Shown one piece after another: positions 5,709 to 51,719 of a stretch of DNA of 64,000 bases. Numbering within the stretch: position 1 is the stretch's first letter; every line of letters starts with the position of its first letter. Below the pieces are notes generated by a model. That model saw only the letters and a list, made by a program, of their open reading frames with translations. It did no database searches and had not been told where the DNA came from. Both the position numbers and the translations under genes were made by a program. This DNA is from a virus (taxonomy: Duplodnaviria; Caudoviricetes), in IMG/VR virus record IMGVR_UViG_3300036802_000003, positions 1-64,000 of that record. The stretch is one strand, 5' to 3'.

Positions 5709-8700
5709 ATGATTAACAAAGACGCTCCTTACTATGACGACTTTGACCCAGCTAAGAAGTTTAGTAAAATATCCTTCGTACCAGGCAGAGTAGCCCAAGC
5801 ACGTGAGTTTACTCAAATGCAGACCATTATCTTTGAGTATCTTAAACGTGTGTCGGACACTCTATACAGAGACGGTTCTGTGGTATCTGGGATGGGTTGG
5901 ACTCTGACTAGTAATACTATAAAGATTGATTCAGGTAAGGTATATCTTAAAGGGGTAGTTCATCTATTCGATGCCCAAGAGATACCAATAACTAAAAAAG
6001 GTAAAGAGATTGTAGGGGTTAAGCTTAAAGAAGAGATGATTACAGAGGATAAAGACGTATCACTCACAGACCCAGCTCTTAATATGGGTAATTATGGTCA
6101 GCCAGGTGCTCATAGGGTTAAGTCTAGTGTTGAGCTTAAAATCAATGACCCTGATGCTTCTCCTATCTACGAATTCAATGAAGGGGAACTGCAATTAGAA
6201 ATGGCTAGACCTCAATTTGATAGCGGTTTAATGGACATGCTAGCAAAACGTACTGTAGATACTAATGGTAACTATCGTGTTCGTGGTCTAGATTTAAGTG
6301 CAGAAGAGCATGATGCCAACAATATGAGAATCATAGTAGAAGCAGGTACGGCTTATATCATGGGTTATGAGGTTATTAAGGTAACCCCTGTTAAGAAAGT
6401 CATACCTAAAGCCTTAGATACCCGTACAGTGCAGAATGAGCCTCAAGTGTACTTAGGAAACCAAGACAAGTACCCACTGAATAACTCTCCTGTTAAACGT
6501 ATTGACCGTGTATCTGGTGAAGTTCAGGTAACAGAGACCGTTACAAGAGGTGCAACTATCAACGGCATTGACCCATTAAGTAAGAACCCAGTATCCGACA
6601 TCGTGTCAATCACTGGCTATGCTAAGGGGACAGATTATCAACTTACTACTAATGGTGTAGACTGGAGTGCTGGTGGAGTTAGTGGAAAAGAACCTGCTAC
6701 AGGCTCTACTTACTCTGTAACATATAAGTACAGAAAGAACTTTGTAAATGCTACTGACTATAAGCTCATTACTATCACTGATGCTTGGGGTGTTACCAAA
6801 GACAATCTTCAGTGGCTTGCAGGAGATAAACCTGTTAATAATACACAGGTTAACATTGATTATCAATTCTACTTACCACGTGCTGACTTAGTGTCAATCG
6901 ACCGTTATGGTAACGTAATAGTCACACAAGGTCAGAGTGATATAGAATTAAACGTGGTAGCTCCACAACCATCTAGTGAGGAACAACTAGTCCTTGGTGC
7001 AGTTTATATAAATCCTGGACCAAATAATAAGACTGCTAGGACTAAATTCAACGCAATAACAAGGATGGAAATGGGAGAGATTCAACGTCTAGCTAGACGT
7101 GTTGATGACTTGGAGTATAACCAAGCAATAACAGCACTTGACCGTGATGCAATGGCTGGAGAACTACCTTCAGACTTGAAAGGCATATTCTCAGATAGCT
7201 TTAGGTCTGTTACACGTGGTGACTTATCACATCCAAACTTCAATATTATGTACTCATTGGAGGATGGGGTAATCATGTTACCTACAGATACAACTAAGGA
7301 CATCAAGCCAAATATCAATATGGACTTGTCTAACGTTAAGTCATTTGGACGTTTAATAGGTGCTCCTATGACTGAGGTTGTGGGTGTTGAGCAGCCATAT
7401 GCTACTCAATCTATGTTAGTCAACCCTTACCTATCATTTAATGTATTCTCTAGCTTAAAGCTTACTCCTGCTTCAGATAACTGGGTGGATGAAAGCTATA
7501 TCAAGATTGAGAATACTGAATATAGTGTTCGTAACTTCTATCGTTGGTGGGGACATCCAGAAGCAGTACCTTGGGTACAAGACCTCTTAGACCTTAAGAT
7601 GGATGATGGAAGAACAGTAGGGGACTGGAGACCACCTTGGACACCAGGTGAGACAGTAGATACTTCACCTAGAACAACTGTATCAAAGGTTGAGAAGTCT
7701 CGTAGTATCCTAGAAGACGCTATCACTATCATGAGACAGAGGGACATAGAAATCTTCTGTGAGAACTTACAGCCTACAGCAGATAACCTAGAGCTGACGT
7801 TTGATGGTGTACGTGTTCCACTTACTCCTATCAAGGGTACTGCAACAGGTGCTAATCCGGGTACCGTTAGAGCTAATAGCTCTGGTCAGGTGTGGGCTAA
7901 GTTTACAATACCAGCTGGTATTAAAACTGGTACACGAGAAGTTCTGTTACGAAATTCTACTAACTCTGCGGTGGCTTCATTCACCTCTATTGGTACTAAG
8001 AGAACGGTTACAGATACTATTCTGACTAAACGTATTACCCTAGTGCCTGTCGATCCACTAGCACAGACGTTTGAGTTCGATAGAGATACTTTAATGACTT
8101 CAGTAGGAGTTTACTTCTCTGCCAAACACGATACTAAGCCTTGTACAGTTCAGATTCGTAACGTAGTCAATGGCTACCCAAGTAACGTAATATATGCTGA
8201 GAAGGTTCTACAACCTTCTGATATCAAAGTTAGCTCTAATGCTATCTCAGAAACTAAGATTACATTCGATGACCCTGTAATGTGTCAAGCTAATATTCAG
8301 TACTGTATGGTAATCTTATCTGACAATGATAAACACTCTATGTGGGTGTGTGACTTAGGTCAGAAGGATGTTACTACTGGTGTGCAGGTTACTCAGCAGC
8401 CTTACCTAATTGGTATGTTATTTAGCTCTAAGAATGCTAAGACATGGACTGCTCATCAGTCTATGAACTTGAAGTTCAAAGTATATAAAGCTGAATTCCA
8501 ACCAGTAGGAGTAATCGAGTTTGACCCTATCTCTAACTTAGGAGCAGACCGTTTAGTACTTCTTGCAGACTACTTAGTACCTGCTAATACAGGTTGTATC
8601 TGGGAAGTTAGCTTGGATGACGGAATGTATACTCCATTAGGGAACTATGAACCGCATGACTTATCTCAGATTGTTAGTAAGGTTAAGCTACGAGCTACCT

Positions 8701-15300: not shown

Positions 15301-18300
15301 ACTCCTAGTGAGAAATCCTTATTGAAAAAGGACTGGGATTCTATCGTTGGTGAGTATCCTACCATCTCCGCACAAGCGGATGCATTTGGAGCAGTAGCAG
15401 AGAAGGATAACTACAAGAAAGCTTATGATGCTCTTAAGCTTCTTATAGAGACTCCTCTTGCGGATGTTACTACTACATCTCCTGTAAACGGTGCTGACAT
15501 GAGAAACAAATTCAAGGACTATGCTGACAAGAAATCTAAGCTATTAAGATACCTGTCAGATGCAGCTAAGTCCCAAATAGACGGCATTAATGTTGGTGGA
15601 CGTAACTTAGTCTCTGGTACAATGTTCAAAGACTCTGTTGGATGGACTAGGTGGAGTAACCTTGAGACTGTAGGAGTTCGTAATGATCCCTTTAACAACT
15701 TTGACTTCCTAGTAACAGAGACTAAAGTAAATGGAGCTAACTCAACCGTACCTACTGGTACAGCCATAGGTATGAGAGGTATTGCACGTCCATTCCCTGT
15801 TAAAAAGGATAATCAATATACAGTGTCTATGGTTGTCGCTACTAGTGAGATTGGCAACATGCTTAACTATACCTATATCATGTATAGTGATGGTTCAGGG
15901 GTTAACCAAAGAATACCAGATATTAAGGTTGATAGCTTCCCTAAATATAGCCTTATAGCTTCTGGGTCAGCAACTTACTTCTATAAGGTGTCCTTTACTT
16001 TCACAGCCAGCAAGGATGACAAAATAGCTCATCTATTGATAGGGGGGTCAGTAGCTAGAGATTTACCTACTGCTTCTAACAATGCATATGCTTGGATTCG
16101 AGTAGCATACCTTAAAGTAGAGGAAGGTAATAGACCTACTGCATGGACACCATCCTTTGAAGATGTATTTGGGGATATTAAGTCAGCAGATGACAAGGCA
16201 CAGGCAGTACAGAACTCTGTAAACGATATGTCTGCGGATAACAAAATGACTGCCCTAGAGAAGCACCAAGCTAGTAAAGACTGGGAAGGGGTTAAAGCCG
16301 AGTACCCTATAGTAGCTGCACAGGCAGATGCCTACAGCAAGACTGCTGAAAAGACTGCTTATACGACTGCTTATACTGCACTGAAAAACTATATTGAACC
16401 TATTTTAGTTAAGCTAAATGAGACTTCTGATATAGATGGCAACAACTACCGAGGACTATGGAAGAATTATTCCGATACTAAATCTAAGCTACTAAGAGCA
16501 GTTACGGATGGCTCTAAGGATGCCATTGACAATGTATCTGTTGGTGGTAGAAACCTAATCCTAGGCTCTCATAAGGACTTCTCAACAACAGACTATCTAA
16601 TCAACCAGTACATGCTATCTGAGAACTGGATAGCTGGTCAGGAGTATACTTTTGTTATAAAAGGCACTGTCCCAGCAGGTCAGAAGTTTGGTATATGGAT
16701 GAATGGTGGCTCTAATAACGTTGGGTACGTAGATATTACTCAAAAATCCCAGACACTATATACAGGGGTATATTTTGTTACATTTAAAGCCATAGCTACT
16801 ACTTCTGGTAATGAGAGAATCATCAACCTGTATAATGTCCCAAGTAACACTACTGCATCTACTGTAGATTGGGTTGCATTGTATAGAGGTAATAAGCCTA
16901 TGGACTGGACACCTGCTCCAGAAGAGGTACAGGGTAATATTGACAATATCCAAGTGGGTAGCCGTAACTACCTTGCCAATGGTGACTTCAGTACCCCTAT
17001 TGTAGATGACCCTAATACTGCCTATTATGCTAAAGGGGACGTAACAGAGATTGTGGACATCACTAATGAGACTCCCCCACATAAGAAGGCTCTACACTGT
17101 AAGAACACTGCTGCTAAGAATAATGGTCAGTCCACCATGCCTATCTTCATAGGAGGCGCTGCTAGTGACTTGTTTGGTAAGGAAGTTACAATTAGTGCAT
17201 GGATAAAGTACCAAAACGTAGTTCTAGGGGTTAACTCTTGGAACAAACTACGTGCAGTTGAATTAGTAATAGAATATAAGAAAGCTGATGGCACATCATT
17301 CTATGACTACCCAAGCATTATAAGTGCTGTAGGTACGGACATGACTTGGAAAAAGGTGTTCAGAACTGTCAAGTTAAACCACCCAGACGCTAAGAGTGTA
17401 GTTAAAGTTTCTTATAAATCTATGCTTGAGGGCTGTATCGGGGAGTTCTGGATTACTGGTCAGAAGATAGAGATTGGTAACAAGGTTACTGACTGGACAC
17501 CAATGCCTGAAGAGGTTAACAACGTTATCTCTACCATTACAACTCGTGTTGGTTCTGTAGAGGCTACTACTAAAAACTTAGGAGACCAGCTTCTTAGTAA
17601 AGTAGAGAGCACTGACGTATATACCAAGCAAGAGGTACTAGGTAAACTTGCAGAAGGTGAAATCTATCTAAAAGGTACTGGTCTAAACCACGGTGGAAAC
17701 CGAGTACTAAAGGTAAATGGAGCTACTAAGTATGATAGTAATGCTACTCGTGGTTTACGCTTACTGACTTTGAGTAGAGCAAACTTAGCAACAGTAGAGG
17801 ACATCAACTATGATGTATATGCAAGTGATGCTCAACAGATTGCCCTATCTGATAAGCTGAAATCTTTAGGTAATAACGTCTTGGTCACTCTTACATCTTA
17901 CGATGCAATTAACATGACTACTAACACTGGATTGCTAGATACCCTAGCTGACTTTGGGGGTTCTGGTCAAGAGCTACGAGGTAGATTCCCATTTGCATTT
18001 ATAGGTCTTAAGGGTCTTGGTAAAGGGTCTGGTATTGAGGTATCAACTGGTTTAGACCAAACGAAAACACCTGTAGCAGAGGTGTTTACTAAGGTATCAT
18101 CAGGTATACCACAAGGATTCAATACTTCCTCTAAGGTACTAAATGATACGGTAAGTACTATCACTACTAGAGTAACTACTGCCGAGTCTACAATCAGTCA
18201 GCATTCCAAGAGTATTGACCTAAAAGTAAATGTTGATGGAGTTATTGCAGCTATCAACCTCTCTCCTGAAATTGGGAAGGGTGTACTAATCCAAGGGGAG

Positions 18301-41680: not shown

Positions 41681-41710
41681 AAAAAGGTAGCCCATTACAG
41701 GCTACCTTTT
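41681..41710. terminator. Bidirectional terminator between convergent genes
   Basis: AAAAAGGTAGCC/GGCTACCTTTT. Confidence 0.8.
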
Positions 41711-42546
41711 AATATTGAATTTATTATGCTTGTGAAGTCCTCATGTGTACCGCTCAAGAATCTAACCATCGAGCCATGTGTATAGTGCCTCATCTCATTT
41801 ACCCTTTTGGTAAATCCATTCTTAGTTAACAGTAGAACACGTGGAAACGTAGGATTCTTGAACACCCTTGCCCATTCCTTTTTAGCCCACTGTTTGGACA
41901 CATAGTAATCTTTGTAATTGTCAATCTTGTTCTTGATAACTGGTAACCTCTCCGTACCCATGTCGACCTCAATGCAGAATCCATATCCTTTACCCTTACA
42001 CTTAAATATGCAAACAATGTCGGGCTTAATGTAACTGTCATTAAAGTGGCACTTCTCTTCCGTCTCATAATATATCATCTCTCCCCCTAGTTCTCTAAGA
42101 ACTTCCTGTATCAAGCATTCACACTCATTAATGGCAACTCTGTGGTGAAACCCATCTACTAGTGTTCGCTGACCAGAAGAGTCATACTTGATTGGCTTGC
42201 TATATCGTTCTATATCCAGCAAGATTATTCCTGCCCTATCAATACATATGTGCTGTTGAGCACTTCCCTGCCCTAAAGGTACAGGAGGAACTATTCTATC
42301 TATCACATGCTTGTTGAACAGTATCTTCAACCTATTGTTAAGCCTTTCGGTGCTAGCAAATTCTGGGTAAAGGCGTTGTATCTGGTTTCTCTTTAGCACC
42401 CTCTTATCAGCCAGTAATCTTAACAACCCCATATCCCTCTCTGTAATGTTGTTGCAGTTATTGTAAACCCACTCTTTGGTAATCTGCTTTACCTCTGGAC
42501 GCTTATAAATACCTTTCATATCAGCCTTCCTCCAGTCCATCATCAT
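41695..42546 (-). CDS. Replication-relaxation (Replic_Relax) family protein
   Basis: wHTH-like ITERD..LL..L...RL..L; H.VAINE; IKPD; IEVDMGTE....K...Y..Y; FPRVL. Confidence 0.85.
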   Translation of the reverse strand: MMMDWRKADMKGIYKRPEVKQITKEWVYNNCNNITERDMGLLRLLADKRVLKRNQIQRLYPEFASTERLNNRLKILFNKHVIDRIVPPVPLGQGSAQQHICIDRAGIILLDIERYSKPIKYDSSGQRTLVDGFHHRVAINECECLIQEVLRELGGEMIYYETEEKCHFNDSYIKPDIVCIFKCKGKGYGFCIEVDMGTERLPVIKNKIDNYKDYYVSKQWAKKEWARVFKNPTFPRVLLLTKNGFTKRVNEMRHYTHGSMVRFLSGTHEDFTSIINSILKGSL

Positions 42547-45256
42547 TTAATACTTCCTCTAGTAATTCCATTATTTCCTCTGCACCTTCTTCATCACCAT
42601 CCTCTAGTAGCTTAGTTACTAGTGCACCAGCATCCTTTTCTAGTGTACGCAATTCCTCTTCATGTTGTTCTCTACGCTCATCTTCATCAATCTCAATAGG
42701 GGTGTTTTTTGGTGGGGTTTTGCCCTTCTTGATGTCTTCCTCTACTAACTCGACACTGAACTCCGCATTGTTCTTGTATCGGAACAACTCATTCAGCACT
42801 TCCTGTTTCGGTCTTCCCATAAGCTTTGCATTCTCATCGTATAAGTCATTATTGTTATACTTCTTGTATCTCTTTTCAGGCTCATTAATAGCCTTAACCA
42901 TAAATGGAGGAGTAGCTTCACCCTTCTTATTGTACATCTTTAGCTTGACGATTGCATGATGCTTAGGCATACCCTTTGCTATTTGGTCTGCACTAAACTC
43001 TGGTTGAATAACAGACTCCAGTTCTTTCAAGTTATCTCTATCTGTTTGGAATACTACATAGTGTGGACCAGCCTTACGTATCATCTTAGGCAAGGACTTA
43101 TCCATAGCCTTTAACTGCTCCCACCCATGGAACATAAATGTTAGACCACAACGGTACTTTCTATAACGAGTTAACATATTTCTCCAACGCTCACTACCTT
43201 TGATATAATGGTCTGGCTCATCTAGTATAATGAAGCATGGCTTACGGTCATCCTCTTCCTCGATATCCTCCCTGCTAATGATGGCAAGGTTGAATTTAGA
43301 TATTAAGAAGGATACCAATGCAGTCTGGTTCTCTTCTCCTAATGTCTCATTAGCCTTGACTAATACTAGGCAACCCTCATCCATCCACTTTCTGAAGTCT
43401 ACTATATATTCACCATTCTCATCCTTTTTAGGCTTCTGAAGTATGAAACTCTTTAGAGCCTTCTTACGCATTACAACCGCTAAACGTCTGAATGCTTGTT
43501 CATATATAGCTTTTCTGTCCTCTTTAGACATCTTCTCATGGAAGTACTCCCAATCACTACGCAACTCTGGGTCATCAATATGAGGAATAATGCTGGCACG
43601 GTACTCCGCATTACTCAGCATATTCTCTATATCCTGCAACGTTGCATCTGGAGTAGTGTATACTGCACGTACAGCATTCTCAACCCAGATTCTAGATGTC
43701 ATGCTTAACTCCGTACCTGCAACTAACTCAACGTATGACAGAATCTCTTCAGTAATTAAATCCTCAATAACATCAGCATTTCTACCTCTAAATATCTCAT
43801 TCCATCCTAACCCTACTGGGTTCTCTGAATTTAAGAAATCTATTATCTTTACCTTATGTCTCTTCTCTGGTGGAACTAGATTCAGTATCCTCTGTGCTAA
43901 CTTACCATCTGCCGCATCTACTACCATAGACCCATAACCTTTCTCCAGTGCATCTAGTGCAAAGCTAGCTGCAAAGGTAGACTTACCGCTACCTGGCTCT
44001 CCTATGACCACACGTGACATACACAGTAGGTTAGGGTTATCTCCTGCGAAGTATACTGTCTTAGTTTCACCATCTGTGTCCTCATATGTCGCAAACGGTA
44101 TACCCTTACCATCATCCTCAAATATTTCCTTAGGAATATCTGCTGAACTTCTATGCTGAACAGTATCTAGCTCATTTTGGTGCTCCATTTGTAGTACTTG
44201 GTCTGGTACCTGTATAATCTTAGCTAACTCTAGGGAGCATAGCTCATCTCCATTCATCTTAACAACCATCTTACGGTCTCTAATATTCTTGAGGGCTTTA
44301 ATTTTGTCTCTACCCTCTACTTCTTTCGCCACTAGTTTGTTATCCCCTTCTAAAGGGTGGAAACCTGCTGTAAGGCTTCTCGTGATAGCTCTACGTCTAT
44401 CTTCATCATCAGATATAGCTATTGCATTAAAGTTAATCTTGAACCCCTCACTATACTTCTTACGTAGTGAGGATTTAGAACGTCCCTCATGTGCCTTTCG
44501 CTTTAGCGACTCTCTAAATTCAGTATTCATCTCCCATCCAGGTATGAGGAAATCTCCTACTATGTTCATAAGTTCTTCAAGAACAAGACCCATGACGTTA
44601 GCCAAGCCCACCAAGACGTTTTTTGATGTAAACATCGTACCTTTTTTCTTAGGGATGACGTTCTTCTCCTTGATATTTTCACCAATCCCAACCATAGTCT
44701 CATTCCAAGACTCACCAAGCGGTCTCATCCCTAGTTGTAGTATCGCATAATCCTCATCCTTGAGATAGTTTGTAGTCGTCAGGATAGAGTCAAGTGGGGT
44801 ATACTTAGGGTTCTCCATGTCCAAGGCTAGTGCTGGGTGATTCTGCAAGGACATTTTGGTAACACTAGTATTGTCCATGTGAAGGTTAGGCAGAGGGTCT
44901 TTCACCTCCCTCACCGTAGAACGTTTCCAGCATCTTCTTATCTGCCTAGTAAGTGCATCCTTTAAATGGTCTTTATCAGGTATAACCAAATAGAACTTTA
45001 CCTGACCTTTGTGTATGACCACTTCCCACCATATATTCATCTCTGGAGTGTATATAAGTCTACCACCTCCAAAGTTTATACGCTTGTTTAGTGGAGTAAA
45101 CAATGTTGCAAACTCTGTTATAAGCCATCTAACCCCTGCATTGGACGTCATCTTACTAGGAATAACCTCCAGTGTCACATACTGTATTTCCTCTTTCTCT
45201 ACTAAACGTATCTTCTCCTTAGTAGTTGGATTAACAATATTAACCTCTGGTTGCAT
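42521..45256 (-). CDS. VirD4/VirB4/HerA-like DNA-translocating ATPase (911 aa)
   Basis: Walker A VIGEPGSGKST, VVDAADG, Walker B FIILDEPD, RKYR.GL...H; large N-terminal domain with a hydrophobic segment. Confidence 0.82.
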   Translation of the reverse strand: MQPEVNIVNPTTKEKIRLVEKEEIQYVTLEVIPSKMTSNAGVRWLITEFATLFTPLNKRINFGGGRLIYTPEMNIWWEVVIHKGQVKFYLVIPDKDHLKDALTRQIRRCWKRSTVREVKDPLPNLHMDNTSVTKMSLQNHPALALDMENPKYTPLDSILTTTNYLKDEDYAILQLGMRPLGESWNETMVGIGENIKEKNVIPKKKGTMFTSKNVLVGLANVMGLVLEELMNIVGDFLIPGWEMNTEFRESLKRKAHEGRSKSSLRKKYSEGFKINFNAIAISDDEDRRRAITRSLTAGFHPLEGDNKLVAKEVEGRDKIKALKNIRDRKMVVKMNGDELCSLELAKIIQVPDQVLQMEHQNELDTVQHRSSADIPKEIFEDDGKGIPFATYEDTDGETKTVYFAGDNPNLLCMSRVVIGEPGSGKSTFAASFALDALEKGYGSMVVDAADGKLAQRILNLVPPEKRHKVKIIDFLNSENPVGLGWNEIFRGRNADVIEDLITEEILSYVELVAGTELSMTSRIWVENAVRAVYTTPDATLQDIENMLSNAEYRASIIPHIDDPELRSDWEYFHEKMSKEDRKAIYEQAFRRLAVVMRKKALKSFILQKPKKDENGEYIVDFRKWMDEGCLVLVKANETLGEENQTALVSFLISKFNLAIISREDIEEEDDRKPCFIILDEPDHYIKGSERWRNMLTRYRKYRCGLTFMFHGWEQLKAMDKSLPKMIRKAGPHYVVFQTDRDNLKELESVIQPEFSADQIAKGMPKHHAIVKLKMYNKKGEATPPFMVKAINEPEKRYKKYNNNDLYDENAKLMGRPKQEVLNELFRYKNNAEFSVELVEEDIKKGKTPPKNTPIEIDEDERREQHEEELRTLEKDAGALVTKLLEDGDEEGAEEIMELLEEVLNDDGLEEG

Positions 45257-45267
45257 CTTAATCCCTC

Positions 45268-45468
45268 CTATTTAAACCATCCTTGCATAAATTCTGGTAA
45301 CACGTACATCATCTCTTCCCTAGCCTTCTCACCTATAGACTCAAACGTTGCATCAAAGATACCACCCATTATACCACCAATGAACTTTAGACCATTCCCA
45401 GATAGCTCTGGTACTGCTAGAGACACCACCACATATATACAAGAGTATGCTAACTTCCTTATCTCCAT
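45268..45468 (-). CDS. Small membrane protein (66 aa)
   Basis: Hydrophobic/GxxxG segments; RBS GGAGG. Confidence 0.65.
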   Translation of the reverse strand: MEIRKLAYSCIYVVVSLAVPELSGNGLKFIGGIMGGIFDATFESIGEKAREEMMYVLPEFMQGWFK

Positions 45469-45469
45469 A

Positions 45470-45613
45470 TTAGTGACCTCCCATCCACATACCCATCAGC
45501 ACTTTGACAGTCTTATATGCCACTTGATATGAGAATCCAGGAGCTATATACTCGATGGCTCCCATTATCAAGAGCGTCTTAGCTATACTTCCAACCAGCT
45601 TAACCCAGAACAT
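45470..45613 (-). CDS. Small membrane protein, 47 aa (MFWVKLVGSIAKTLLIMGAIEYIAPGFSYQVAYKTVKVLMGMWMGGH); not in the ORF track
   Basis: Translated by hand; RBS GGAGGT; 1-nt gaps to both neighbours. Confidence 0.7.
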   Translation of the reverse strand: MFWVKLVGSIAKTLLIMGAIEYIAPGFSYQVAYKTVKVLMGMWMGGH

Positions 45614-45614
45614 A

Positions 45615-45749
45615 TTATTGTACCTCCAAGAGTACTTCTACTGCCTTATTAACTGACCATGTTAACACCTTGATAGTCACCATACCTGCTGTAACCAACC
45701 CTGCACCAACAACATACAACACTTTATTGCTTACTGGTTTCTTTTCCAT
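45615..45749 (-). CDS. Small membrane protein, 44 aa (MEKKPVSNKVLYVVGAGLVTAGMVTIKVLTWSVNKAVEVLLEVQ); not in the ORF track
   Basis: Translated by hand; RBS AGGAGGGG; single TM segment. Confidence 0.7.
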   Translation of the reverse strand: MEKKPVSNKVLYVVGAGLVTAGMVTIKVLTWSVNKAVEVLLEVQ

Positions 45750-45760
45750 CTGAACCCCTC

Positions 45761-46141
45761 CTATTGAAATTGTTTAGTATTCATGCTTAAAGCTTTGTCT
45801 AGGTCTATCTCCTTGTCTTGCTGTACAAGTATCTTTGGCTTGGATTCTTTTATCTGAGGTGCAGGCTTCTTATCTGACACTGGGAGATGAGGTTTCTGAT
45901 GTGATACTTTTTTCTTAGTTTTACTAGGGTTCTCTGGTCTCTGATGTGATTTGATAGGAGTCTGTGACATTATCTCTGATGTGATGTTATCATATAACCT
46001 CTGTGACAGCTTTGGGTCATGCTCTACTGCAAATAGTACACACTCTCTGATAAATCTACTTCTATCCCTCATATCATCCAAGTGTGCTTCCAGCCATTCT
46101 GTAGACTTAGTTGTTCTGAATGTATACTGTTTATCAGCCAT
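45761..46141 (-). CDS. ParR-like ribbon-helix-helix adaptor
   Basis: QYTFRT strand + WLEAHLD...DRSRFIRECV helices, disordered tail; directly downstream of the actin-like ATPase. Confidence 0.7.
   Translation of the reverse strand: MADKQYTFRTTKSTEWLEAHLDDMRDRSRFIRECVLFAVEHDPKLSQRLYDNITSEIMSQTPIKSHQRPENPSKTKKKVSHQKPHLPVSDKKPAPQIKESKPKILVQQDKEIDLDKALSMNTKQFQ
45895..46008. repeat. Iteron-like repeats (TCTGATGTGAT x3, TCTGTGACA x2) inside the parR-like gene
   Basis: TCTGATGTGAT at 45895, 45940, 45975; TCTGTGACA at 45961, 46000. Confidence 0.7.
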
Positions 46142-46142
46142 A

Positions 46143-47180
46143 TCACACACCCCTAATCAGATTTCTAATACCCCATTTGTGATACCCCTTAGCTACTGCA
46201 AACTGACCATTCTGTGATAGTTCTGTGTTCGGAAAGTGGTCTTTCATATGAGGATATAGTGAAGCTCCTCCCCCACCAGCAAATATTATTTTATCTAGGA
46301 AGTTAATCTCATCCTTCCAGAAGTTATGCAGTCTGTTAGTGATGTCGTAGGCTACATTCTCGTAAGCCCAGTCTATTGTTGGAGCCATGTCATACACCTT
46401 AGTTCCAGACTTCAATACTCTGCTCTGTACTACATGCTCTGCTTTGTACAGTGGGAAGTTTACTCCTGTGTGGTCTAATATATTATCTGAGACAACTTGG
46501 TTTACCGAATTCATAGCAACGCTGAAGCTAGTAGTCAGATGCTCAATGTTATTGAAGACCTCACACACATAGATGTCTGTAGTTCCAAACCCTATATCAA
46601 CTACTGCTACCCTTGACTTAGCTAAGTTTGTATCTGCTATCTCACCTTTATCATCCAATATTCTGTCCATTAATGCTCCAAATGGTTGTGGTACGAATAG
46701 ACCTTTCCTACCCTTAACTGATCCATTTACTCTTATACCAGAGGACTCTATATTGTACTCATGCTTATTGTCCATAAACAGGCTCCTAATAGCTTCCTTG
46801 TATTCATCAAAGTGGCTAACTGGTAGACCTGATACAAAGTTAGTTTCCTTTGCTCCACCATTCATCCCTAGACCGAGGATAGTCCCTAATAATATCTTTG
46901 TAACCTCACTATCAAAGCGGTCACTCGTCAGAGAGTGTTTAACGATTCTAGATTGAGTTATTGCTAAGTCCGATACAAAGTGTACACCTTGTGAATCTCT
47001 GTATTCTATGTCGTCATGCTTTTTGTCTACCGCAAACGAGTCTGTTACACTCCTGTTGAAATCCTTTAGCTTTCTATCTTTCCCTACACCTACAACCGAC
47101 TTGATTATGATTGGCTTACCATTGATAATCCCTTTTGTATACATAAACCCTAAGTCAGCCACCGTAACTGCTTTACTCAT
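46143..47180 (-). CDS. parM: ParM/StbA-family actin-like segregation ATPase
   Basis: Phosphate-1 ADLGFMYTK, SGLPV, VPQPFGA, phosphate-2 VVDIGFGTTD, adenosine FAGGGG, AKGY; start at 47180 after AAGGGGG. Confidence 0.9.
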   Translation of the reverse strand: MSKAVTVADLGFMYTKGIINGKPIIIKSVVGVGKDRKLKDFNRSVTDSFAVDKKHDDIEYRDSQGVHFVSDLAITQSRIVKHSLTSDRFDSEVTKILLGTILGLGMNGGAKETNFVSGLPVSHFDEYKEAIRSLFMDNKHEYNIESSGIRVNGSVKGRKGLFVPQPFGALMDRILDDKGEIADTNLAKSRVAVVDIGFGTTDIYVCEVFNNIEHLTTSFSVAMNSVNQVVSDNILDHTGVNFPLYKAEHVVQSRVLKSGTKVYDMAPTIDWAYENVAYDITNRLHNFWKDEINFLDKIIFAGGGGASLYPHMKDHFPNTELSQNGQFAVAKGYHKWGIRNLIRGV

Positions 47181-47193
47181 ATCTGATTCCCCC

Positions 47194-47673
47194 TTAGAAA
47201 GATATAGATGAACGGATGATATTCGAAATCCAGCGTAGCATTTGGAACATAGTAGGTAACATTGAGATTCCAATATAAGCGTACCCTACGTTCTTAATTC
47301 TGTTCCATCCAGCATCCTTACTCTTACCTGTTGCCATCATGATAAACCCTATCAGAGCGTAGAACCAAAGTATTGGCTCTGCTATTGCAGTGAATATATC
47401 AACTATATCCATGAACCCTCTGCGTAGGTCGTTGGCATTTTGAGTAGCTGCAAATGCATGTGTAGCTCTCATCCCTAGTCTAGTAACGATTGCTGTAGGT
47501 AGAATCATCTCTCCGAACCATCTAACCAAGGACTTTCTACCCTGCTCTAGTTCTCCAGCATGTCGTGATTTATTTTCGTATTGAGGTTCTATGAAATCCC
47601 ACTTAATTACTTCTGGCTTCTTAACGTTGCTCACTTGAATGCCTTTACCCGTAGTTACCAATTGCGTCATCAT
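47194..47673 (-). CDS. VirB2/TrbC pilin-like membrane protein
   Basis: AHAFA-like cleavage site (THAFA|ATQ) then two TM helices with a GKSK.GW.RIK..G.Y loop; start at 47673 after GGAGGAG. Confidence 0.6.
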   Translation of the reverse strand: MMTQLVTTGKGIQVSNVKKPEVIKWDFIEPQYENKSRHAGELEQGRKSLVRWFGEMILPTAIVTRLGMRATHAFAATQNANDLRRGFMDIVDIFTAIAEPILWFYALIGFIMMATGKSKDAGWNRIKNVGYAYIGISMLPTMFQMLRWISNIIRSSISF

Positions 47674-47820
47674 AATCTCCTCCATACTCATTGATTTCCG
47701 CAACCCAGAGCGGAGACACCCCAAAGTAAGAAAAAATGTTTCGGTTTTGCTGGAGAGTGGGACACCTAGAGAATCAAAGGGTGTACTAGCATTGCCCCCT
47801 CATTACCAAAAAGTGACGGT

Positions 47821-47846
47821 GGGTCGTTTCGGGGGGTCGTTTCGGG
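47821..47846. repeat. Perfect 13-bp tandem repeat GGGTCGTTTCGGG x2
   Basis: 47821-47833 and 47834-47846; partial GTTTCGG at 47738. Confidence 0.8.
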
Positions 47847-47977
47847 TTTGCTTTAACTTTACGTTGGTCTAGCTTGTCACATTACTAGGGACGAGTTCAA
47901 TGCCATTGCTTCCTGCTAATACGGAAGAATATTCCTGTCGTGGATTGGGGAAATCTAAGTTCAGGGGGTGGCTATCA

Positions 47978-48079
47978 ATGGAAGAGAAGAAAGCACTAGG
48001 TGAACGTATCTTTGACTTTTCAATAAGAGGGCTTATAGTACTCTATTTCATAAAAGCGGCAGTGGAAGTATTTGGCTAG
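47978..48079 (+). CDS. 33-aa membrane peptide (MEEKKALGERIFDFSIRGLIVLYFIKAAVEVFG); not in the ORF track
   Basis: Translated by hand; RBS AGGGGGTG. Confidence 0.6.
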   Translation: MEEKKALGERIFDFSIRGLIVLYFIKAAVEVFG

Positions 48080-48109
48080 AACACCGAGGAATCCCCACGG
48101 AGGGGAGGG

Positions 48110-48243
48110 AAAAAAGAAAAAGGAAGAGAGAGCAACGCACTACGAACTGGCATAGTGAATAGTATAGGGAAGTGAAGATACCTCGATTTCATGACTCTGT
48201 AGCTGATTCCCTAGTTTCGTAGCTACCTTGTGTCTCTCTTTTA
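48110..48243 (-). ncRNA. Candidate structured small RNA (~130 nt rod)
   Basis: Nested helices 48124-31/48233-40, 48140-46/48216-22, 48165-71/48207-13; minus-strand TATAAT at 48250-55 just upstream; U tract right after the closing stem. Confidence 0.5.
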
Positions 48244-48310
48244 CTGTGTATTATACTATAGTCTCCTCCATGATAATTTATTATAGACAAGTTATTTTGG
48301 AGGTGTAGGA

Positions 48311-51250: not shown

Positions 51251-51346
51251 AGGGTCACAAGGGGAGAAGCTCACTGGCGGTTACACCAGAACTTCTACAA
51301 TACTTGAGACTTTTACTATAACATATTTCCTTAGGAGGAATTTAAA

Positions 51347-51655
51347 ATGAATAAACAAGAAACTGTAAAAGCTATTTCTGTACGTACTGGATTAACACAA
51401 GTAGATGTAAACAAAGTGTTTACTGCGCTTAAAGAAATCACTGTAGAAACTCTACAAAAAGGTGAAAAGCTACAATTAACTGGTTTCTGGGGAGTAGAGC
51501 CTGCATACCGTGCACCACGTAAAGGTTTCGACCCTATTAAGAAAGAGCCAATGGAAATCGCTGCTACTGTAGGCGTTCGTATCAAAGCTGGCGAAGATTT
51601 AAAGAAAGCTGTAAAAGGCTTAAAAGTAGAAGACTTTGCTCCTAAAGCAGAGTAG
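51347..51655 (+). CDS. HU/IHF-family DNA-binding protein (TF1-like)
   Basis: MNKQE.VKAIS...GEKLQLTGF...R.PRKGFDP...KAG..LK.AV. Confidence 0.92.
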   Translation: MNKQETVKAISVRTGLTQVDVNKVFTALKEITVETLQKGEKLQLTGFWGVEPAYRAPRKGFDPIKKEPMEIAATVGVRIKAGEDLKKAVKGLKVEDFAPKAE

Positions 51656-51719
51656 TCTATAACGATCATAGCTGCATATATCTGAACGGTATCGTTCACA
51701 CATACTTCTGAAAGTGTTC

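Follow-up and report, generated by a model that had tools for sequence, protein, structure and literature searches.

The first 64,000 nucleotides (nt) of the virus record IMGVR_UViG_3300036802_000003 (Duplodnaviria; Caudoviricetes), here called the window, contain an operon of eight successive open reading frames (ORFs) that fill positions 41695-47673 on the minus strand, and which we number g1 to g8. The parent record is complete (139,244 bp) and has direct terminal repeats. Across the region, entire operon included, the DNA is 90-92% identical to that of the Bacillus phages CP-51, JL and Shanette (Herelleviridae, Spounavirinae, Siminovitchvirus). The operon is real, intact and well conserved. 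It brings together plasmid-like partition genes, small membrane proteins, a large ATPase whose structural models point to the VirB4 type and a relaxase-like nuclease. Its components and flanking elements are:

47674-47900, no strand assigned: upstream non-coding control region, a candidate promoter/operator, parC or oriT.
47194-47673, minus strand: g1, VirB2/TrbC-like pre-pilin candidate of 159 amino acids (aa), from sub-threshold Pfam matches, a family alignment and hydropathy.
46143-47180, minus strand: g2, ParM-type actin-like protein of 345 aa, from Pfam, PDB and PHROG matches.
45761-46141, minus strand: g3, basic protein of 126 aa in the ParR position, starting 1 nt past parM.
45615-45749, minus strand: g4, peptide of 44 aa with one transmembrane segment by hydropathy (PHROG 15178, E 6e-27), annotated in CP-51 and SPO1.
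45470-45613, minus strand: g5, peptide of 47 aa with one transmembrane segment by hydropathy (PHROG 23813, E 5e-35).
45268-45468, minus strand: g6, protein of 66 aa with a hydrophobic N-terminal helix and a Gly-rich amphipathic part (PHROG 15417, E 4e-40).
42521-45256, minus strand: g7, predicted VirB4-type two-domain P-loop ATPase of 911 aa, from AlphaFold2 (AF2) models and structure comparison.
41695-42546, minus strand: g8, Replic_Relax (MOBC-family) relaxase-like PD-(D/E)XK nuclease of 283 aa, from Pfam PF13814.
41682-41710, no strand assigned: bidirectional intrinsic-terminator-like hairpin, AAAAGGTAGCC-cattaca-GGCTACCTTTT, with a perfect 11-bp stem and a 7-nt loop, read from the sequence.

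The genes are tightly packed: every one is preceded by a GGAGG-type Shine-Dalgarno sequence, the intergenic gaps measure 1-13 nt and g7 and g8 overlap by 26 nt. The hairpin is placed between convergent genes, where it covers the final codons of g8 and, with an A-run before it and a T-run after it, is common to the operon and the convergent plus-strand gene; a simple terminator scan did not pick it up. Negative GC skew is restricted to 42-48 kb of the window, and one further minus-strand ORF (51331-51699, 122 aa) was found in a greedy non-overlapping set of ORFs of at least 80 aa. The operon is flanked by a sigma-factor region on one side and a thymidylate-synthase-like gene on the other. The same eight genes are annotated in CP-51 as gp97-gp90, and an identical eight-gene order recurs in SPO1 (gp29.1-gp27.3), where the gp28/gp27 regulatory genes lie on one side and gene 29, for dUMP hydroxymethylase, on the other. 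A preliminary description of this DNA had seen here the only minus-strand operon in the 64 kb, with eight tightly coupled genes, strong ribosome-binding sites and a bidirectional terminator at its end. On the ORF listing and the GC skew it is indeed the sole clear minus-strand block, and the remaining elements of that layout are as described. The 44- and 47-aa genes, which that description had noted as missing from the ORF track, are real, being backed by their PHROG matches and by annotation in CP-51 and SPO1, and the flanks it gave, a sigma-factor region and a nucleotide-metabolism side, agree with the CP-51 annotation. A sigma-70 scan returned promoter-like sites no more frequently than in shuffled sequences. 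We also considered the locus as a decaying remnant and rejected this reading, with all eight genes intact and the catalytic residues invariant across lineages.

The largest product, g7, comprises an N-terminal domain (residues 1-372), an ATPase domain (374-800) and an acidic helical tail (857-904). Its AF2 model has a predicted local distance difference test score (pLDDT) of 91, and the N-terminal domain modelled alone has one of 94. The top structural match of the ATPase domain (374-799) is VirB4 (4ag5; Z 27.2, root-mean-square deviation (rmsd) 3.4, 344 residues), a match to be read with the reservation that, judged from the models, this domain alone does not discriminate among VirB4, DndH, TrwB and HerA. 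The N-terminal domain was aligned exhaustively with 48,161 chains: the TrwK/VirB4 chain 7o42_A comes out first with Z 15.3 (rmsd 3.6, 247 residues), against 8.7 for the next chain. Likewise, in a Foldseek search with this domain the top 13 matches are TrwK, and every match with E <1e-4 is TrwK/VirB4. Hydropathy revealed no N-terminal transmembrane segment. Because both domains match VirB4 best and an N-terminal membrane anchor is lacking, the models argue that g7 is VirB4-like and not a VirD4-type coupling protein, as which it had been presented in the preliminary description. The Walker A and B motifs are intact, with K425 and E680 invariant and G424 and D679 nearly invariant among 90 homologues. 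At the sequence level, g7 finds P-loop noise only; a profile built from the 90 homologues weakly reaches HerA, DptH, TdpA, DotL and TrwB in the PDB, and the coupling-protein profile NF045973 scores 14 bits against a cut-off of 250. The precomputed Pfam label of the g7 homologues is DUF8128.

Downstream of the ATPase, g8 matches Replic_Relax (PF13814) over residues 42-222 with 68.4 bits, well above the cut-off of 25.3, and has an N-terminal DNA-binding part; the family assignment made from the sequence at the outset is thus upheld. PF13814 is present in all close homologues of g8, and P175-D176, E193, D195 and K207 are invariant in 14 sequences drawn from the SPO1-like, Nate, FADO and 0305phi8-36 lineages. 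The PHROG label of the family is 'replication initiation by nicking'. Replic_Relax proteins belong to the PD-(D/E)XK fold, and Pfam describes the family for both replication and relaxation (PMC3424549); they are also the MOBC relaxases, exemplified by pAD1 TraX and CloDF13 MobC (PMC5357655; PMC12857230). Since Replic_Relax is itself a relaxase family, an HUH relaxase, whose absence had been listed among the gaps of the system, is not needed.

The two genes that follow g1 have the layout of a type II partition cassette. The ParM identity of g2, proposed from the outset, is borne out by matches to ALP_N (67.9 bits) and MreB-like_C (68.8 bits), by similarity to the pCBH ParM structure 6ixw over residues 2-337 (E 2.7e-27) and by membership of PHROG 691, partition protein. 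The product of g3 appears, on reading, to have a ribbon-helix-helix-like N-terminus and a Lys-rich linker; an Atlas feature search returned Plasmid_stab_B at 0.83, below the level of 0.9 that counts, and hence serves as a lead only. Within g3 (45891-46008) the 11-mer TCTGATGTGAT occurs three times, spaced by 45 and 35 bp, and TCTGTGACA twice; in the first reading of the sequence, one TCTGATGTGAT copy was found to be read in another frame than the remaining two. The same gene region of SPO1 carries other repeats, CTTCAGTAAC. These repeats could be peptide repeats, or binding sites evolving along with the adaptor. As a separate observation on ParM-like genes, a Logan phage contig whose ATPase is 30% identical (L013) has two ALP_N genes (6783-7962 and 15862-17077) with a small gene after each, and one of the two adjoins a tyrosine recombinase gene and the module.

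The first gene of the operon codes for a candidate pre-pilin. Its match to Pfam T4SS_pilin is sub-threshold (19.3 bits, cut-off 26.6), and across its family of 19 sequences T4SS_pilin is matched in 15 and TrbC in 4, all sub-threshold (best E 1.8e-4). The N-terminus is variable and includes a hydrophobic leader with an AxA site, cleavage being predicted between AFA and A; in the family alignment the leader ends in AFA, VLA, TFA or VYA, and then come conserved AIAEPILWFYAL, GKNK and GYAYIGIALLPTFF segments in this order. The mature part is strongly conserved, with two hydrophobic helices and a short basic GKNK-type loop between them. In BLASTP, g1 weakly matches (E 0.006) the TrbC/VirB2 protein encoded just before the homologous ATPase of plasmid pCLK, and it matches neither SPP1 gp31.1 nor the 160-aa protein of phage Nate. 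The leader, the paired helices and the 15 of 19 relatives with sub-threshold T4SS_pilin matches together favour the pilin-like first gene postulated initially.

As for the three membrane peptides postulated alongside it, a clear transmembrane segment is present in g4 and g5, and what g6 has is a hydrophobic N-terminus. The gene for g6 lies directly 5' of the ATPase gene, the place that VirB3-like genes occupy in operons of type IV secretion systems (T4SS). Genes loosely corresponding to it by position precede distant ATPase homologues, and small hydrophobic genes are found immediately 5' of the ATPase gene in all lineages seen. A complex prediction for g6 with the ATPase N-terminal domain returned a score of 0.00 and is uninformative either way. 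In the phage Nate (L005:4937-5659) we noticed an M23 peptidase gene (69 bits) inside the module, between the 160-aa gene and the 50-aa gene 5' of the ATPase gene; an M23-type hydrolase is absent from the CP-51-type operon.

In the ~226-bp region 5' of g1, a 13-bp sequence is repeated in tandem (47817-47842) and recurs in part a third time (47738-47751). The region also contains blocks kept in CP-51 and SPO1, namely TGACAAGCT (47871-47879), AAACGACCC and GCTAGTAC, and blocks are found in a metagenomic relative too. The block TGACAAGCT occurs only once in the 64-kb window, ~205 nt 5' of g1; it is in the same place in CP-51 and SPO1, and ~312 nt upstream in the metagenomic relative (L016). It matched no promoter consensus, and by eye no SPO1 middle or late consensus could be assigned in the region. 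The repeats and conserved blocks upstream of the operon and the repeats within g3 are candidates for a promoter/operator, a parC or an oriT. Beyond the region, at 47900-48310, lie a 59-aa plus-strand ORF (CP-51 gp98) and then ~230 bp of non-coding DNA before a head-decoration-like gene.

With 4,338 cluster representatives at E ≤1e-3, the ATPase family is a large one. A search of 401 Bacillota genomes found full-length relatives in only 4. A tblastn search of a phage collection found it in 145 records, including SPO1-likes, SPP1 (gene 32), SP-10, Tsamsa/Nate-type phages, FADO-type large siphoviruses and 0305phi8-36. Phages of endospore-forming hosts account for 144 of the 145, and Staphylococcus, Listeria and Enterococcus phages for none. 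The ATPase is also present on 93 plasmids, chiefly of Bacillus and Clostridium, which by PLSDB typing are non-mobilizable in 78 cases and conjugative in none. On the Clostridium botulinum plasmid pCLK, a TrbC/VirB2 gene (28.5 bits, cut-off 27.9) directly precedes the homologous ATPase. For the relaxase-like gene the count is 67 phage records, most of those listed having the ATPase gene alongside. The full set of ParM, adaptor-position gene, small proteins, ATPase and relaxase-like protein is present in SPO1, Nate, FADO, 0305phi8-36 (orf207-200) and metagenomic SPO1-like contigs. The operon is conserved in at least four unrelated phage lineages, and its genes do co-occur in relatives, a point on which the preliminary description had made its own proposal depend.

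Two sets of records from this survey merit separate mention. A 44.8-kb phage-like metagenomic contig (L015; 320-4745 and 6197-10343) has the module without ParM and adaptor (134-, 37- and 62-aa genes, ATPase and Replic_Relax) and, beside it on the opposite strand, a prkA / DUF444 (yhbH-like) / spoVR set. In Bacillus this set is associated with sporulation. NZ_CP076118.1 and NZ_CP106792.1, FADO/PJN02-like sequences of 162-166 kb with the module, have been deposited under the label of circular plasmids, from isolates of B. amyloliquefaciens and B. subtilis, which fits plasmid-like carriage or persistent contamination of the cultures.

The system had at first been called undescribed, and this has to be corrected: operons of this kind were described by Pathria et al. 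in 2012 (PMC3357382) and Godinho et al. in 2018 (PMC6316719). Pathria et al. coined the term "DNA translocation operon" for 0305phi8-36 and pointed to SPO1 gp27.3, gp27.4 and gp27.9 as the equivalent set. Iterated searches and HHpred led them to recognise orf200 as homologous to the MobC relaxase of CloDF13 (E 4e-22), orf201 as a VirD4-like translocase without a transmembrane domain and orf207 as MreB-like, and they found that a mutant without orf200-207 was unchanged in plaque size and yield (PMC3357382). In SPP1, gp31.1/31.2/gp32 were proposed to form a trans-membrane translocon; 31.2 and 32 are non-essential, and the homologous genes are transcribed early, alongside replication and lysis genes (PMC6316719). 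The genome papers on the phages Izhevsk and Kirov read the presence of ParM, ParG-like and Replic_Relax genes as pointing to carriage in the manner of a plasmid. More recently, a 2026 study quantified virospores of SPO1 and named gene 27.9 (ParM) as possibly relevant to entrapment (PMC12991052), and CP-51 DNA had been found trapped in spores, where it was stable for at least 305 days (PMC4113786). The correction made here is the VirB4-type assignment of the ATPase; the kind of operon has been known since 2012 and is functionally uncharacterised.

The interpretation that we tentatively place ahead of the others is that we have here the form which the accessory 'DNA translocation operon' of Bacillus phages takes in the CP-51 type, with an ancestry in plasmids or conjugative elements and a role in non-lytic persistence, either by capture in the forespore or in a carrier state. 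Three parts would cooperate in it: a type II partition pair of ParM and the small basic protein in the ParR position; the inner-membrane core of a T4SS, made up of the VirB2-like pre-pilin, the three tiny hydrophobic peptides and the soluble VirB4-type ATPase, which the membrane proteins presumably anchor; and the MOBC-family relaxase-like nuclease, whose translation is coupled to that of the ATPase. The adaptor and the relaxase would bind cis sites in the conserved upstream region, and ParM filaments would bring the phage DNA to the membrane-bound ATPase platform at the pole or septum, where it might be nicked or held, and possibly threaded. The pay-off would be that the phage genome is kept or placed in non-lytic situations, mainly forespore capture or the carrier state. 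As the homologues are dispensable in the laboratory, a need in the lytic cycle is improbable, and the operon is probably not required there. We rate non-lytic persistence likeliest because spores are known to trap CP-51 DNA, and because essentially all carriers of the module are mobile elements of spore-formers. A more far-reaching version, which we regard as doubtful, would make the operon a minimal DNA-translocation machine consisting of the VirB2-like protein, tiny VirB3-like peptides and the VirB4-type ATPase, without a coupling protein or VirB6; with the MOBC relaxase as its loader and ParM filaments as its feed, it would carry the genome of the virulent phage through the septum, to the forespore, a sister cell or a neighbour.

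Several observations weigh against the persistence interpretation. The link of the operon to spores, the carrier state or DNA movement is one that we infer, and no Spo0A box (TGTCGAA) was found near the operon. The restriction to phages of spore-formers may reflect only a Bacillus-centred gene pool and the limits of tblastn. The ATPase domain of g7 is nearly as close to DndH-C (Z 25.4), TrwB (25.3), DotL (24.2) and HerA (23.3) as to VirB4; the VirB4 profile PF12846 (AAA_10) has no match in the genome, and TIGR02746 (TraC-F-type) scores 11.3 bits on g7 against a cut-off of 567, so that it is the modelled fold alone that says VirB4. For the ParR designated in the preliminary description, the small basic gene directly after parM stands, and a family match is lacking: g3 matches no Pfam or NCBIfam family, and its putative adaptor role is read from its place after parM and its composition. 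SPO1 conserves the upstream repeats only in part: neither the 13-mers of that region nor the 11-mers of g3 are kept there as repeats. Further, SPP1 and several prophages and contigs carry the ATPase and small membrane genes without ParM or the relaxase, and the parts of the cassette can hence work separately. Finally, the complete 139,244-bp genome has no match to the coupling-protein profile PF02534 or the VirB6/TrbL profile PF04610, in agreement with the initial remark that a full T4SS set is not visible; the search consisted of these two profiles, which divergent Gram-positive analogues could escape. VirB8 and VirB10 were likewise not found in the genome, again with PF02534 and PF04610 as the only profiles tried. 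By these profile searches, the actual gaps appear to be the coupling protein and VirB6, and since neither is recognisable, the operon would not be a complete conjugation system by known rules.

Other explanations have been weighed against the same evidence. The operon might organise replication: the actin and the adaptor would move DNA to the membrane, a nick made there by the relaxase would start rolling-circle (sigma) replication, and the platform for it would consist of the ATPase and the membrane proteins, so that burst efficiency is raised with no role in transfer or persistence. The PHROG label of g8, the Pfam description of Replic_Relax as covering replication as well as relaxation (PMC3424549) and the setting of the operon among genes of DNA metabolism and replication are in line with this; so is the early transcription of the SPP1 homologues with replication and lysis genes, and there is a precedent for a phage actin directing DNA to the membrane in AlpC/AlpA of the Corynebacterium prophage CGP3 (summarised in PMC8026635). 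Yet deletion of orf200-207 left the plaque size and yield of 0305phi8-36 unchanged, SPP1 gp31.2 and gp32 are non-essential, no role in replication is known for a VirB4-type N-terminal domain or a pilin-like protein, and the module is also found on non-phage Clostridium plasmids beside a VirB2 gene. We hold this explanation to be unlikely. True cell-to-cell transfer, in which a minimal apparatus of conjugation or Ced type would pass phage DNA out of or into neighbouring cells in chains or biofilms, was the reading put forward by Pathria et al. (PMC3357382) and, as a candidate route, by the preliminary description. The company of a relaxase-family protein, a T4SS-type ATPase and a pilin-like protein speaks for it, as do the M23 peptidoglycan hydrolase within the Nate version and the stimulation of conjugation by the Par proteins of plasmid R1, and missing parts might come from conjugative elements of the host. 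We nevertheless consider it quite improbable: the coupling protein and VirB6 were not found genome-wide with the above profiles, the CP-51-type operon lacks the hydrolase, a virulent phage kills its would-be donor in one cycle, the plasmids with the ATPase are mostly non-mobilizable and never conjugative (78 and 0 of 93 in PLSDB), and a transfer phenotype has not been reported.

Exclusion or defence is the least probable of the explanations that we entertain. Here a HerA/FtsK-class ATPase and a PD-(D/E)XK nuclease would attack superinfecting phages, plasmids or the thymine DNA of the host as against the hydroxymethyluracil DNA of the phage, with the membrane proteins acting where DNA enters. 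ATPase-nuclease pairs are typical of defence systems. The profile of the ATPase family does match HerA, DptH and TdpA in the PDB, PADLOC matches g7 to mad8 (E 1.5e-11), and the fold is also near DndH-C and the HerA of defence complexes (Z 19-25). On the other hand, the N-terminal domain is specifically VirB4-like (Z 15.3 vs 8.7) and not a HAS-barrel as in HerA, PADLOC has no match for the nuclease g8 or any operon gene other than g7, SPP1 holds the ATPase without the nuclease, and the ParM, ParR-position and pilin-like genes would be left unexplained.

The wider point is that virulent model phages, SPO1, SPP1 and CP-51, retain an intact, catalytically conserved cassette of plasmid or conjugation type that is dispensable in the laboratory. 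If it does serve spore entrapment, a carrier state or particle-free spread, this would explain how virulent phages of spore-formers persist in soil, with relevance to phage-based control of the B. cereus group. Were the minimal translocation machine to be real, virulent Bacillus phages would have a way, active and encoded in their own genes, to become dormant or to spread without particles. The refined assignments provide testable parts in the tractable SPO1/B. subtilis pair: a predicted VirB4-type ATPase, a pilin-like first gene and a MOBC relaxase, with no coupling protein or VirB6.

Among the closest known systems are the SPO1 counterpart gp27.3-gp29.1 and the orf200-207 operon of 0305phi8-36, the latter, like the present phage, a virulent phage of the B. 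cereus group. The 0305phi8-36 operon shares the MOBC-like relaxase, the large ATPase without a transmembrane segment, the ParM/MreB-like protein and small membrane proteins; its orf204 is, like g1, T4SS_pilin-like (19.6 bits), and its relaxase gene likewise overlaps and follows the ATPase gene. The proteins are 25-31% identical to those of the operon described here. Unlike in the latter, the ParM gene comes first, a virion gene is inserted on the other strand, and there is a 286-aa orf203, VirB6-like according to its authors (a homology that Pfam did not reproduce), in place of the 44-66-aa peptides of the CP-51 type. Its ATPase was read in 2012 as a VirD4-like coupling protein, whereas our models suggest a VirB4-like one. 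At the SPP1 locus, gp32 belongs to the same ATPase family as g7 (tblastn, 22.6% identity over 87%, E 5e-25), is also without a transmembrane segment, has overlapping small membrane-protein genes upstream and matches TrwB, VirB4 and FtsK in HHpred (PMC6316719), but in this siphovirus with a 44-kb genome no ParM, ParR-like or Replic_Relax gene adjoins it.

The VirB2-VirB3-VirB4 core of T4SS, as in TrwL/TrwM/TrwK of R388 (7o42, 8rtd), has in common with the operon the two-domain VirB4 architecture, the small membrane-protein genes directly upstream of the ATPase and a pilin-like gene; it differs in the company of VirB6, VirB8, VirB10 and a coupling protein, none of which was found here with the profiles tried, and its VirB4 sequence profiles are not reached by g7. 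With the MOBC relaxases pAD1 TraX and CloDF13 MobC, g8 shares PF13814 and the invariant acidic and Lys residues of the PD-(D/E)XK type, although BLAST finds no similarity between it and the MOBC plasmid proteins. CloDF13 has the coupling protein MobB, and no cognate coupling protein was found for g8, whose nicking activity is putative. The direct repeats to which TraX binds lie 70-120 bp from its nic site (PMC12857230), and the tandem repeats upstream of the operon may be compared with them. In plasmid R1, ParM and ParR bind the relaxase, the coupling protein and the VirB4-like TraC, and stimulate relaxase activity and transfer (PMC4949242). There par and tra are separate loci of a conjugative plasmid with a full T4SS, and here there is one operon in a virulent phage without the full T4SS; in both, ParM and ParR (in g3, by position) occur together with a relaxase and a VirB4-like ATPase, and R1 hence provides a precedent for a ParM/ParR pair that is physically and functionally linked to a relaxase, a coupling protein and a VirB4-like ATPase.

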